Part shown: positions 32,124 to 33,515 of the stretch, one piece after another
Layout of the letters: each line of letters starts with the position of its first letter
Position numbering within the stretch: the first letter of the stretch is position 1
Assembly (NCBI GenBank): GCA_963731265.1
Contig: CAVSUE010000001.1
Coordinates: forward strand, 608,001 to 672,000
Direction of reading: 5' to 3'
Source: an uncultured Verrucomicrobiae bacterium
GTDB taxonomy: Bacteria; Chlamydiota; Chlamydiia; Chlamydiales; Rhabdochlamydiaceae
Length of the DNA: 64,000 bases
Notes under the pieces: model-generated
Told to the model about the DNA's origin: nothing
The model's database searches: none
The model's input: only the letters and a program-made list of their open reading frames with translations
Made by a program: the position numbers and the translations under genes

Positions 32124-33352
32124 ATATCGGAAAAAATGCCAAGGACGCTTCCCGCTTGATGGCGTTGGCTTCGACAAAAACAAAAAATGATGTTCTTGCC
32201 ACTCTCGTTAGGAATTTAAAGACAGATCGTGAAAAGGTCCTCCAAGCAAATGGCCAAGATATTGAGGCGGCAAAAGAAAAAGGATTGAGTTCTGCATTGC
32301 TTGAACGCTTATCCTTGCGTTTGGAGTTCATTATTCACGATCTCGAGCAAGTGATCGCGCTTCCGGATCCGATTGGCGAAAGATTTGAAGAGAGAATTTT
32401 GCCGAATGGTATGAGCGCTGAAAAGCGTCGTACTCCGATTGGCGTCTTGGGCGTCATCTATGAATCCCGTCCCAACGTCACTCTCGATGTGAGCGCATTG
32501 TCGATCAAGTCGGGCAATTGCGCCATTTTGCGTGGGGGATCTGAAGTATTGCAGACAAATCGAATCTTAGTCGCCATGGTCCAGCACTCGCTGACATCGC
32601 ATGGCTTGCCCAGCGGCGTCATTCAATGCATCACAGATCCCGACCGTCAACGGGTCTATGAAATGCTCCGTATGGACAGTTACATCGACCTCATCATCCC
32701 GCGAGGAGGTGAAGAGTTGCAGAAATTTTGCCGCGAGAACAGCACGATACCCGTGCTTACCGGCGGAGTGGGAATTTGCCATCTTTTTGTCGACGCCTCA
32801 GCAAATGTGGAGCGCGCTGTAGAGGTCGTTGTCAATGCAAAGACCAGCAGGCCGACTGTATGCAACGCATTAGACACGCTGCTTGTCCATGCGGAAATCG
32901 CGCCCATTTTTATTCCTCAAGCCGTTGCGGCATTGGAAAAAAAAGGGGTCCGGTTTCGCATGGATGCAAAATCGTGGCCGCTTTGCCAAGGCGCTTCTTG
33001 TCAACGCGCCGAACCCGAAGATTTTGAAACGGAATGGATGAGCCTTGTCCTTGGGATCAAGATCGTCGAAAATTTAAGCGAGGCGATCGATCATATTCAG
33101 CAGCATAGCATGGGACACAGCGACGGTATTTTGACGGAAAACGAAAGACACGCAGAGCTTTTTGTCGAGCAAGTCGATTCTTCCGCTGTGTATGTCAATG
33201 CCTCGACCCGTTTTACCGACGGGGGACAGTTGGGGCTTGGCGCGGAGGTGGCCGTTAGCACACAGAAACTACATGCGCGCGGGCCTATTGGGCTTAAGGA
33301 ACTCACTTCGAGCAAATGGGTCGTCAGAGGGAGGTATCATGTTCGGAGTTGA
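32120..33352 (+). CDS. proA: Gamma-glutamyl phosphate reductase
   Basis: IYESRPNVT, LRGGSE, VCNALDTLL, VNASTRFTDG, STQKLHARGP. Confidence 0.96.
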   Translation: MNIGKNAKDASRLMALASTKTKNDVLATLVRNLKTDREKVLQANGQDIEAAKEKGLSSALLERLSLRLEFIIHDLEQVIALPDPIGERFEERILPNGMSAEKRRTPIGVLGVIYESRPNVTLDVSALSIKSGNCAILRGGSEVLQTNRILVAMVQHSLTSHGLPSGVIQCITDPDRQRVYEMLRMDSYIDLIIPRGGEELQKFCRENSTIPVLTGGVGICHLFVDASANVERAVEVVVNAKTSRPTVCNALDTLLVHAEIAPIFIPQAVAALEKKGVRFRMDAKSWPLCQGASCQRAEPEDFETEWMSLVLGIKIVENLSEAIDHIQQHSMGHSDGILTENERHAELFVEQVDSSAVYVNASTRFTDGGQLGLGAEVAVSTQKLHARGPIGLKELTSSKWVVRGRYHVRS

Positions 33353-33378
33353 ATATAATTGGGGTTCTCATCTATAAT
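33349..33378 (+). promoter_or_regulatory. Sigma70/66-type promoter for leader plus permease
   Basis: TTGAAT-18 nt-TATAAT just before the leader RBS. Confidence 0.6.
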
Positions 33379-33390
33379 CCATGGAGATAT

Positions 33391-33456
33391 ATGTTGTATT
33401 TTTTAAGTCATTCTTACTTCTCTCATCATCACCATCATGGCCTCCCCAGAGGCTAA
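33391..33456 (+). CDS. Putative histidine-rich leader peptide (MLYFLSHSYFSHHHHHGLPRG)
   Basis: GGAG RBS, five consecutive His codons, hairpin GCCTC-ccca-GAGGC abutting TAA, T8 run after. Confidence 0.78.
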   Translation: MLYFLSHSYFSHHHHHGLPRG

Positions 33457-33515
33457 ATCAATTTTTTTTCTCACATCTGTTTTCGCTTTTAAAAAAAAAT
33501 TAACGATGGTGTTTT

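Follow-up and report, generated by a model that had tools for sequence, protein, structure and literature searches.

A conserved histidine-codon leader that probably controls a Trp/Tyr-family permease in Chlamydiota

The window, a stretch of 64,000 nucleotides (positions 608,001 to 672,000 of contig CAVSUE010000001.1, assembly GCA_963731265.1) from an uncultured bacterium assigned to the Rhabdochlamydiaceae, carries a short His-rich ORF between proA and a permease gene. In the window proA directly precedes the element, and its stop codon is overlapped by the -35 box of a promoter-like site. The start codon of the leader ORF lies approximately 125 nt from that of the permease. The features are listed below.

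33349-33378, + strand: promoter-like site, sigma-70-like TTGAAT-18-TATAAT, 10 of 12 positions matching
33349-33354 and 33373-33378, + strand: its -35 (TTGAAT) and -10 (TATAAT) boxes, spacer 18 nt
33383-33386, + strand: GGAG, 4 nt 5′ of the leader ATG
33391-33456, + strand: leader ORF MLYFLSHSYFSHHHHHGLPRG, ATG at 33391, 21 codons plus TAA (33454-33456)
33409-33411, + strand: additional His codon CAT, read from the sequence
33424-33438, + strand: His-codon run H12-H16, CAT CAT CAC CAT CAT, read from the sequence
33423-33436, + strand: predicted 5′ strand of helix P1, facing the translation initiation region (MFE fold, duplex energy, cognate/non-cognate tests)
33438-33444/33449-33455, + strand: hairpin P2, UGGCCUC-CCCA-GAGGCUA, 7 pairs of which 4 are G-C, CCCA loop
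33462-33469, + strand: T8 run, beginning 6 nt after the P2 stem
33505-33519, + strand: permease translation initiation region, GAUGGUG, UUUU, AUG A; predicted 3′ strand of P1 (MFE fold and duplex)
33516-34715, + strand: permease gene, 399 aa, Trp_Tyr_perm (HAAAP), PF03222

The preliminary description of this DNA had listed a promoter, a short ORF with mixed CAT and CAC His codons, a hairpin and a T8 run, and all of these are present in the sequence. The His run was confirmed with a corrected count, the peptide containing six His residues in 21 codons, five of them consecutive; between the window and the sister species G032 the run differs by an in-frame 3-nt indel. The hairpin does overlap the TAA, through the 3′ arm of P2, and the T-run exists, but it starts 6 nt off the stem and does not abut it. 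In the MFE fold the T8 pairs with an A9 run (33491-33499), and it may act as a weak terminator tail or as a pause site. The GGAG, described as a ribosome-binding site, is found in the window but is missing from G032, where the motif and the surrounding 8 nt are absent (8-nt gap) and the leader ATG lies 6 nt 3′ of TATAAT. If the RNA starts about 7 nt after the -10 box, as we assumed, the GGAG of the window would form the extreme 5′ end of the RNA.

The 2.34-Mb genome was scanned for runs of at least four CAY triplets in any frame on both strands, which yielded 21 runs. Nine others, those with the shortest open frames, were inspected; in none did a hairpin and a downstream gene follow a short ATG ORF in an intergenic position, and all nine were out of frame or antisense within coding sequence. 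By this comparison, and by its recurrence in other lineages described below, the leader arrangement in the window is beyond chance.

The permease matched PF03222 with 305.4 bits (cut-off 22; E 8.3e-91), its residues 14-390 aligning on profile positions 3-390 of 393, and TyrP, Mtr and TnaB share this domain with it over the full length. The curated cut-offs for named subfamilies were not reached: the aromatic transporter subfamily TIGR00837 scored 286.6 against 350, the TyrP equivalog NF011711 188.8 against 482, and the Mtr/TnaB models NF007789 and NF007235 140.9 against 515 and 95 against 497. A PDB sequence search with the permease gave no match. In the clade described below, of which this permease is a member, E349 and N353 are invariant, whereas other family members mostly have Cys or Val and Leu or Phe there; G95 and Y102 are also fixed, the other members having mostly W and F.

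Looking for the leader upstream of orthologues had been proposed as a check. ORFs built like this leader, in which a hairpin directly adjoins the His codons, occur ahead of orthologous permeases in several lineages of Chlamydiota. We collected 17 distinct loci, selected for having a hairpin, in which a short ATG ORF ends in or just past the hairpin, 33-192 nt 5′ of the permease orthologue. Two further leaders (L053 and L050) were read by eye, and the ATG and an open frame across the His codons are kept in all 19. A hairpin-blind test, requiring an ATG ORF of 10-30 codons within 300 nt upstream and at least three His within its last 12 residues, was positive at 17 of 53 clade loci and at none of 53 others. 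In a tree of 102 permeases, the 18 rows with a leader all fell in a single clade of 47 (SH-aLRT 98), with none among the 55 rows outside it. The recurrence and its confinement to one permease clade bear out the reading of the ORF as a conserved leader with putative regulatory His codons.

The leaders vary within the clade. No leader was detectable in 29 of the 47 rows, including L036, where a contig end cuts into it, which indicates that the leader is dispensable or often lost. His residues are few in some leaders (two in L062, L096 and L068, in the motif FH[RC]S, and one in L050), and runs of five His are found in the window and in L045, two distant lineages with unrelated hairpins. At other loci the leader accompanies the permease behind different neighbors, such as a divergent gene or pncA, with TTGACA/TATAAT-like boxes directly 5′ of the ORF. 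L058 shows TAT CAT followed by a hairpin and has no start codon in frame; this possible decayed leader was not counted. L061, with a His-rich 29-codon ORF 230-317 nt upstream and a weak stem, was likewise left uncounted.

Across the 17 leaders, His accounts for 63 of the 254 codons before the hairpin, 5.9 times the expectation from composition. Phe and Tyr stand at 1.05 and 0.73 times what a T-rich, G-poor composition predicts, which argues against the earlier suggestion that Tyr and Phe codons add aromatic sensing. None of the 63 His codons is more than 10 codons away from the hairpin: 30 occupy the two adjoining codons, and the other 33 are found 3 to 10 codons before the stem or, in two cases, form its first codon. 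The part of the leader that precedes the hairpin is about 45-55 nt long and consists of approximately 6-8% G, 23% C and 44-46% T; in the window it has 3 G in 47 nt before P2. The 5′ regions of three paralogous permeases of the same genome contain no short ORF rich in one amino acid, and so give no hint of a corresponding leader for Tyr, Trp or Phe.

The hairpin occupies the same place in all 17 leaders, starting -3 to +2 nt from the end of the last His codon, although it is built from 11 different stem sequences. Shuffled sequence yields a comparably placed hairpin 1.6% of the time. The stop codon is located in or after the hairpin in 17 of 17 leaders. P2 has the G+C-rich stem-loop of an intrinsic terminator (7 pairs, 4 G-C), and together with its tail it was flagged as terminator-like by a scan whose rule barely admits a T8 at 6 nt. 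The T-run is offset from the stem by 3-10 nt among the leaders, contains at least six T in 11 of 17, and is absent or short in 6.

The strict "hisL-type" label of the preliminary description did not hold. An Rfam cmscan of positions 32800-34000, with E values up to 10, returned no RF00514, only six chance-level matches to eukaryotic microRNA, snoRNA and sRNA families. The folds show one local hairpin, and mutually exclusive terminator and antiterminator helices were not found. No antiterminator is possible, because a leader with only about 6-8% G cannot pair with the G/C-rich 5′ arm. With the T-run offset and often short as well, the element, as far as its sequence tells, is not a classical hisL attenuator.

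The folds pointed to a second helix, overlooked in the earlier description, between the leader and the start region of the permease. In the window, P1 would pair 33423-33426 with 33516-33519 (the AUG plus A) and 33430-33436 with 33505-33511 (the SD-like GAUGGUG), so that the CAU codon of His-12 faces the permease AUG. The duplex energy is -13.9 kcal/mol. When leaders were paired with the start regions of all loci, duplexes averaged -12.9 kcal/mol for cognate and -8.9 kcal/mol for non-cognate pairs, a difference equalled in 0 of 20,000 permutations. In 7 of 15 lineages the cognate duplex was the top-ranked one of its row. The result survives the omission of L007 and the use of shorter start-region windows (0, 1 and 4 of 20,000), and after removal of row and column effects the mean residual is -4.1 kcal/mol (0 of 20,000).

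This complementarity has limits. In 4 of 14 lineages (L012, L026, L045 and L067) P1 shows no cognate specificity, it is weak in G032 (-9.7 kcal/mol, rank 5 of 15), and the pairing of the His run with the SD-like sequence of the window is not preserved there base for base. We had entertained a chance origin of that pairing, a reading dropped after lineage-specific complementarity was found at other loci. At 17 of 17 loci it is the start region that receives the best duplex, but this carries no weight because shuffled leaders reach 94%. In partition-function calculations, the SD-region pairing of the real leader was matched by shuffled ones at most loci; depending on the locus, a fraction of 0.05 to 0.95 of the shuffles attained the observed value, and this fraction was at most 0.15 in 4 of 17 loci. 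Shuffle z-scores of the duplexes average only -1.8 and -2.3. In addition, one CAU in an anti-start strand is expected anyway, since CAU complements AUG. The run H12-H16 (33424-33438) lies within or abuts the P1 strand (33423-33436), and given these codon positions a stalled ribosome with a footprint of usual size would cover the masking strand. P1 points to translational unmasking as a main or added mechanism.

The gene content of the organism is relevant to the putative substrate. HisG, histidinol dehydrogenase (HisD) and urocanase were not found in the genome of the window, which is 96% complete. HisD was found in only one of the 61 family genomes searched, that of the sister species G032. 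This species has a complete his operon, and the operon is preceded by a His-rich ORF ending FVSHSHHRHHHHS, with a stem and U-rich runs downstream; the leader of its permease ends LVSHSHFSHHHHGLPRG, a sequence much like the end of the his-operon leader. As G032 keeps the permease leader and yet can make histidine, auxotrophy is no precondition for the leader. The preliminary description had proposed induction by His starvation and transport of histidine. Comparison across genomes favors this as the best reading, because the conserved leader is tied to one clade, HisG and HisD were not found, and the his operon of G032 has a leader of its own. It is the regulation alone that suggests histidine as the substrate, and the permease is a probable histidine importer on that basis.

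We assign a probability of about 0.6 to the reading in which the translated leader senses His-tRNA and controls the permease in cis by freeing a masked start, the permease being a probable importer of histidine. Sensing of His-tRNA by a translated leader is a well-favored component; that unmasking of the start region is the main route has somewhat better than even odds. We infer that the leader is translated, that ribosomes stall on it, which way expression responds and what the permease carries. With ample His, ribosomes would traverse the leader and exit at the stop codon within P2. The G-poor 3′ part of the leader, with its His codons, would then pair with GAUGGUG and the AUG to form P1, and P2 stacked beside P1 would leave the permease start masked. 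Where a T-run is present, a fraction of the transcripts may terminate or pause there. Under a shortage of His-tRNA, a ribosome would wait on the His codons, all of which lie in the last 10 codons before P2, where its footprint would take in the upstream P1 strand as well as the 5′ arm of P2 downstream. This would free the permease start and relieve any termination, and the permease would be made, most likely as the histidine importer of a His-auxotrophic intracellular bacterium.

The same leader might instead be a minimal attenuator acting on transcription only, with P2 and the T-run as terminator, a stalled ribosome masking the 5′ arm and thereby making an antiterminator unnecessary, and the complementarity to the start region incidental. 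The terminator-like flag on the hairpin and tail fits this model, as do the runs of at least six T after the stem in 11 of 17 leaders and the 30 of 63 His codons in the two stem-adjacent positions, where a stall would cover the 5′ arm. L045 also fits, combining a weak P1 with a T8 and, at 8 bp, the strongest hairpin, and the his-operon leader of G032 has a stem and U-rich runs as well. Regulatory codons overlap terminator hairpins at actinobacterial ilvB too, according to PMC1262725. We nonetheless regard a purely transcriptional device as unlikely, given that a gap of 3-10 nt separates stem and T-run, that 6 of 17 leaders have a short T-run or none, and that the cognate-specific complementarity of the start region would be left unexplained. 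By kinetic reasoning, moreover, with the stop codon inside the hairpin, a ribosome keeping pace with the polymerase would mask the hairpin even in His-replete cells, and a lagging one would arrive too late under His shortage. The logic could also be reversed. Coupling-based control of this kind has a precedent in pyrBI: as the leader ORF extends through the hairpin, only a ribosome following the polymerase closely would prevent termination, and His shortage would slow it at the upstream His codons and lower permease expression. The position of the stop codon in or after the hairpin in 17 of 17 leaders suits this scheme, and those of the 33 remaining His codons that lie upstream are too distant for a stalled ribosome to cover the stem. 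It is the least probable of the alternatives: conservation of His is best at the two codons adjoining the stem base, where a stall masks the hairpin, shutting off an importer in starvation makes little sense for a cell lacking HisG and HisD, and a like leader precedes the his operon of G032, for which induction by starvation is the known logic.

Rho-dependent attenuation has precedents in tna and mgtA, and Rho is encoded in the genome (E 4.2e-34). A C-rich, G-poor leader (about 23% C and 6-8% G before the hairpin) would load Rho, ribosomes queued on the His codons would shield it, and transcription would otherwise stop before or inside the permease. This mechanism appears improbable, as the 45-55 nt or so before the hairpin are short for a loading site and their composition is dominated by T (44-46%) rather than C. 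We hold in equally low regard the view that there is no His sensor at all, that is, that a structured 5′ UTR masks the start, with the open frame and His codons as by-products, or that the hairpin simply ends the upstream proBA operon. Pyrimidine-rich shuffled leaders do pair with the start region, CAU and AUG are complementary, and the element of the window directly follows proA. None of this accounts for a 5.9-fold excess of His with tandem His codons that often fall outside P1, for instance in L015. Neither does it explain why every one of the 19 leaders retains an ATG and open frame although the stems of 17 come in 11 different sequences, or why the 3-nt indel inside the His run is in frame. 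The element also accompanies the permease behind other neighbors, with promoter-like boxes of its own, and a similar His-rich ORF stands ahead of the his operon in G032.

The leader resembles enterobacterial hisL (RF00514) in that a short ORF with a His run precedes a histidine-supply gene, the presumed signal in both being charged tRNA-His read by a ribosome. It differs in having one hairpin in place of alternative terminator and antiterminator pairs, a stop codon within that hairpin, and a permease rather than the his operon as target, with an extra helix predicted to mask its start. In the tnaC-tnaAB operon of Escherichia coli, a leader peptide controls genes including that of TnaB, which belongs to the same protein family as the permease. 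TnaC responds to free tryptophan by way of its nascent chain and works via Rho, with no codon run; the present leader peptide is unlike it.

Closer parallels are found among leaders with single-amino-acid codon tracts. According to bioRxiv 10.1101/834739, the mycobacterial poly-Cys leaderless ORFs are likewise short and carry a codon tract for one amino acid, and one sensor type can be shared by several loci, which here would be the permease and, in G032, the his operon. Our ORF is probably leaderless in several loci, as those are. It differs in its amino acid (His, not Cys), phylum and transporter target, and in having a conserved local hairpin that overlaps the stop codon and is followed, in 11 of 17 leaders, by a T-run. 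Pairing of a Leu-codon run with a Shine-Dalgarno box is seen in the LEU element, and the authors call the mode of ilvB regulation unclear (PMC1262725). The present leader shares the codon/hairpin overlap of ilvB and the pairing of codon run and SD of LEU, as these are presented there, in different taxa and with different amino acids. His-leader peptides outside Proteobacteria have been described before hisS and hisZ in bacilli (PMC2965389) and before the his operons of some Firmicutes (PMC9413887), and in these two articles three to five consecutive His codons in a short upstream ORF are read as a His sensor. Unlike our leader, the ones they depict have terminator/antiterminator alternatives. 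Histidine transporters are often under His-specific RNA control, such as the T-box on hisXYZ and yuiF (PMC2965389, PMC9413887); the transporters named in these sources are ABC-type HisXYZ and YuiF, with no Trp_Tyr_perm member. In our literature search, which had most subscription journals outside its reach, no His-codon leader was found in Chlamydiae and none before a Trp_Tyr_perm permease.

[quoted passage not shown] Its CAU codons would double as the strand masking the start and SD sequence, a stop-spanning hairpin would be stacked beside it, and the permease would represent a branch of the Trp/Tyr family that is specific for histidine and has E349 and N353 as its mark. No described member of such a branch was found.

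Chlamydiae derive most of their amino acids from the host. If the proposed control is true, the leader would provide a concrete, testable amino-acid sensor for Chlamydiota, a phylum in which, according to a 2010 survey, a function was known for hardly any of the attenuators that had been predicted (PMC2965389). It would also identify histidine as the likely substrate of one among several similar-looking "tyrosine/tryptophan" permease paralogues that automatic annotation cannot separate. The design would be highly compact, with regulatory codons, masking strand and hairpin abutting one another and operating without an antiterminator.

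Reading of positions 33100-33800 of the window found all the elements listed in the preliminary description, which had proposed a hisL-type leader inducing the downstream permease upon histidine starvation. The locus is organized as follows.

Features of the leader locus (window coordinates)
31359-32123: amino-acid kinase, upstream (Pfam-type domain match), taken as proB
32120-33352: aldehyde-dehydrogenase-family protein, upstream (domain match), taken as proA
33349-33378, + strand: promoter-like site TTGAAT-18-TATAAT, sigma-70-like, matches at 10/12 positions
33383-33386, + strand: GGAG (sequence reading)
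33391 (ATG) to 33454-33456 (stop), + strand: leader ORF of 21 codons, MLYFLSHSYFSHHHHHGLPRG (ORF reading)
33409 (CAT) and 33424-33438 (CAT CAT CAC CAT CAT), + strand: His codons of the leader (sequence reading)
33438-33444 with 33449-33455, + strand: hairpin of 7 pairs, loop CCCA, 3' arm overlapping the leader TAA
33462-33469, + strand: T8 (sequence reading)
33491-33499, + strand: A9 (sequence reading)
33516 (ATG), + strand: permease, 399 aa, full-length match to Pfam Trp_Tyr_perm (PF03222), E = 8.3e-91

The domains of the kinase and the dehydrogenase suggest proB and proA, and the two ORFs ahead of this pair are presumably pncB and pncA, judged from their translations alone. A second ATG, 2 nt past the -10 box, opens a 40-codon ORF (33381-33503) overlapping the leader but read in a different frame. 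This ORF is not conserved, the 8-nt segment with its ATG and the GGAG being absent from the sister species G032.

The window's genome (2.34 Mb in 2 contigs, 96% complete, 45.8% G+C) carries three more permease paralogues at ~40% identity and a copy of the gene's 3' half. The latter is a direct repeat, ~98% identical and 3.85 kb downstream, in which residues 183-399 and ~60 nt past the stop (34070-34778) recur at 37920-38628, fused to an unrelated N terminus in a 261-aa frame (37777-38562). Between the repeats lie three ORFs on the minus strand (189, 276, and 443 aa), the first with no Pfam match. The same half copy is present in a close relative's contigs (L038), and the arrangement suggests an insertion accompanied by duplication of the target. 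A permease match at E ≤ 1e-60 was found in 60 of 61 family genomes, with a separate set of hits at 45-82% identity, above the paralogue level (~35-44%). Relatives of the permease in public genomes belong to Chlamydiota almost throughout (Simkaniaceae, Simkania, Neptunochlamydia, Anoxychlamydiales, and Parachlamydiales MAGs); the closest records carry the label "Verrucomicrobia bacterium."

Short ATG frames whose His codons run straight into a hairpin were recognized by eye in 8 of 21 upstream regions (L001, L007, L008, L012, L013, L015, L022, and L026). Scanning 78 more loci from public contigs for CAYCAY followed by a hairpin within 3 nt added L040, L045, L049, L051, L054, and L067; it also met copies of earlier leaders (L036, cut by the contig end, L037, and L047) and gave two hits of no relevance, located within long frames. 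L053, L050, L062, L096, and L068 were added by eye. A rule-based search for ATG ORFs of 10-30 codons ending at a hairpin, with His not required, yielded 17 distinct leaders with 2-6 His each, and in paralogue loci only ORFs with 0-2 scattered His. A hairpin-free test (ORF of 10-30 codons at most 300 nt upstream, with at least 3 His in the last 12 residues) was positive in 17/53 clade-assigned loci versus 0/53 others, four identical-protein pairs being among the rows.

A maximum-likelihood tree built from 102 different permeases placed all 18 rows with a leader in one 47-row clade (SH-aLRT 98), and none of the 55 rows outside it had a leader. L040 and L096 were excluded from this tree by a length filter, and L036 was scored leaderless though its contig starts inside the leader. 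Conservation upstream of orthologues, the check suggested in the preliminary description, is thus borne out. At least nine changes are needed to account for presence and absence on this tree, consistent with an ancestral leader and repeated losses. Elements at L058 (~1400-1470, a hairpin preceded by TAT CAT in a frame without a start codon) and L061 (~1180-1270, a 29-codon ORF with HHH, far upstream and beside an inverted repeat) may be decayed or divergent leaders. The leader-bearing clade has no orthologue in G054, a third species of the genus (its best hit, at 42% identity, is at the paralogue level), and the search for histidinol dehydrogenase was negative there too. Many relatives (L010, L014-L016, L018, L020-L022, L024, and L025) have upstream of the leader or permease not proA but a small conserved divergent gene, which from its translation we take to be YggU/DUF167-like. 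As upstream neighbors differ, the leader-permease unit appears to move as a block with its own promoter.

The ATG and the open frame through the His codons are kept in 19/19 leaders, and the window differs from the sister species by an in-frame 3-nt indel within the His run. The leader stop falls 6-18 nt past the hairpin start, a position within the loop or the 3' arm or right at the 3' end of the stem. Histidine accounts for 63 of 254 pre-hairpin codons, i.e., 24.8% versus 4.2% expected from the leaders' base composition (5.9 times); all 63 lie at most 10 codons from the hairpin, 30 of them within the two codons adjoining it. Phe, Tyr, and Ser stand at 1.05, 0.73, and 1.2 times expectation, and the earlier suggestion of aromatic sensing through Tyr/Phe codons therefore finds no support. 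Five consecutive His codons occur in the window and in L045, which represent distant lineages (47-48% permease identity) with unrelated hairpins; weak members are L062, L096, and L068 (FH[RC]S, 2 His) and L050 (1 His). In L007 (the sister species' locus), L013, and L022, the leader ATG is 6-7 nt past a TATAAT-like box, so that these leaders may be leaderless mRNAs. Altogether the leader ORF looks translated, with histidine as its special residue.

The 17 leaders have 11 different hairpin stem sequences (e.g., UGGCCUC/GAGGCUA, CAUAGCC/GGCUAUG, ACAGCC/GGCUGU, CAUUGCCC/GGGCAAUG, and AUGGCCU/AGGCCAU), always starting at -3 to +2 nt relative to the last His codon's 3' end. Shuffled sequence produced a hairpin so placed in 1.6% of cases, a rate that shows only that the rule is stringent, the 17 leaders having been selected for a hairpin. 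Folds of the leader loci contain one local hairpin only, and the coding part before it has ~6-8% G, which makes an antiterminator with a G/C-rich 5' arm impossible. The designation "hisL-type" thus holds for the run of His codons in a short ORF but fails in that no antiterminator exists and RF00514 is absent; an Rfam scan of the leader region returned no convincing family even at E = 10. A T-run of at least 6 T is present in 11/17 leaders, 3-10 nt from the stem rather than directly adjoining it, and is a non-universal part of the leader. In the minimum-energy fold of the window, T8 (33462-33469) is paired with A9 (33491-33499), which would bring the start region of the permease closer to the leader. 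Similar T-run/A-run pairs, seen by eye in ~7 of the 11 leaders with a T-run, may be due to chance, since A-runs are common in such spacers.

That fold also pairs 33430-33436 (CACCAUC) with 33505-33511 (GAUGGUG), and 33423-33426 (UCAU, including the His-12 codon) with 33516-33519 (AUGA, including the start codon), forming a long-range helix, P1, between the His codons and the permease start region. A chance origin, prompted by unlike bases in G032, was dropped after folding other loci, in which the leader 3' end is complementary to its own SD and/or AUG with differing sequences (duplex energies of -17.7, -16.5, -18.9, and -16.5 kcal/mol in L013, L015, L049, and L062). That the best duplex lies on the start region in 17/17 loci was rejected as evidence: because no other stretch is purine-rich, shuffled leaders land there 94% of the time. 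A partition-function comparison with shuffled leaders found the pairing unconvincing in most loci. Cognate duplexes averaged -12.9 versus -8.9 kcal/mol for non-cognate ones, with 0/20,000 permutations as good, and the cognate start region ranked first in its row in 7/15 cases. This advantage persisted when the sister species was omitted and when the start-region windows were shortened (0, 1, and 4 of 20,000), and also after removal of row and column effects (mean residual -4.1 kcal/mol, spread 2.2, 0/20,000). It is absent in 4 of 14 lineages (L012, L026, L045, and L067).

Translational attenuation is our best reading of these patterns. Upon quick passage of the ribosome, the start region would be masked by P1, with the hairpin beside it. 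Given the usual ribosome footprint, a ribosome waiting at the His codons for His-tRNA would sit over the upstream P1 strand and the downstream 5' arm of the hairpin, exposing the permease start region. In some lineages, termination or pausing at the T-run might add a further layer of control.

A purely transcriptional occlusion model is rated lower: the T-run is offset and not conserved, the cognate complementarity is left unexplained, and the stop codon lies inside the hairpin. By reasoning rather than computation, a ribosome pacing the polymerase would then block the hairpin in histidine plenty too, and a lagging one could not rescue it in histidine want. A pyrBI-like reversed logic is possible, as is a Rho-dependent version, consistent with the presence of Rho in the genome.

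Searches for HisG, histidinol dehydrogenase, and urocanase gave no match in the window's genome and were positive in control genomes; the His_biosynth family gave a 40-position fragment hit only. Among 61 family genomes searched, histidinol dehydrogenase was found in one, that of G032, as part of a full his operon coding for AICARFT/IMPCHase, PRA-CH, HisG, PRA-PH, histidinol dehydrogenase, an aminotransferase-HAD fusion, IGPD, a glutamine amidotransferase, and two His_biosynth proteins. Operon and leader lie at 12630-3960 on the minus strand of locus L115 (G032:C1:43000-62000). About 120 nt upstream of the operon is a 43-codon His-rich ORF ending FVSHSHHRHHHHS, then a stem and U-rich runs; its His-rich end is similar at the DNA level to that of G032's permease leader (LVSHSHFSHHHHGLPRG). 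Horizontal transfer may have brought in the operon, perhaps together with its leader. Control of a his biosynthesis operon is the textbook role of a His-codon leader, and we regard leaders of the same kind on his operon and permease within one genus as the strongest independent support for the predicted His sensing. The permease leader is retained in G032, a species able to make histidine.

A codon-run leader ORF sensing charged tRNA is a classical kind of element, and attenuation at C. trachomatis trpRBA has reportedly been treated in published papers. A literature search covering few subscription journals found no report of His-codon leaders from Chlamydiae or upstream of Trp_Tyr_perm permeases. 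In the portions of the literature compared, the closest designs are mycobacterial poly-Cys leaderless short ORFs, where stalled ribosomes block a structure sequestering the next gene's ribosome-binding site (bioRxiv 10.1101/834739), and actinobacterial ilvB leaders and the LEU element, whose regulatory codons overlap the terminator hairpin or pair with the SD (PMC1262725). In the parts of the sources consulted, non-proteobacterial His leaders are reported at hisS and hisZ (bacilli) and at the his operons of certain Firmicutes (PMC2965389, PMC9413887), and the histidine transporters named under His-specific RNA or HisR control are HisXYZ and YuiF (PMC9413887).

The permease scored below the NCBIfam cut-offs for the aromatic amino-acid transporter subfamily, TyrP, Mtr, and TnaB, and no solved-structure relative was detectable by sequence. 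Within a GGFGEAFLNG motif, E349 and N353 are fixed in the 47-row clade, where the 55 other family members of the set have mostly Cys/Val and Leu/Phe; the clade also has G95 in place of Trp, Y102 in place of Phe, and T51 in place of Tyr/Phe. Polar or acidic in place of hydrophobic residues would suit a polar, partly cationic side chain, which is only a hint. We infer the functions of leader and permease alike from sequence comparison. The element is a real, conserved cis-regulatory leader of unusual, compact architecture. It is most likely His-responsive and, in line with the histidine transport proposed earlier, suggests a branch of the Trp/Tyr permease family that imports histidine.
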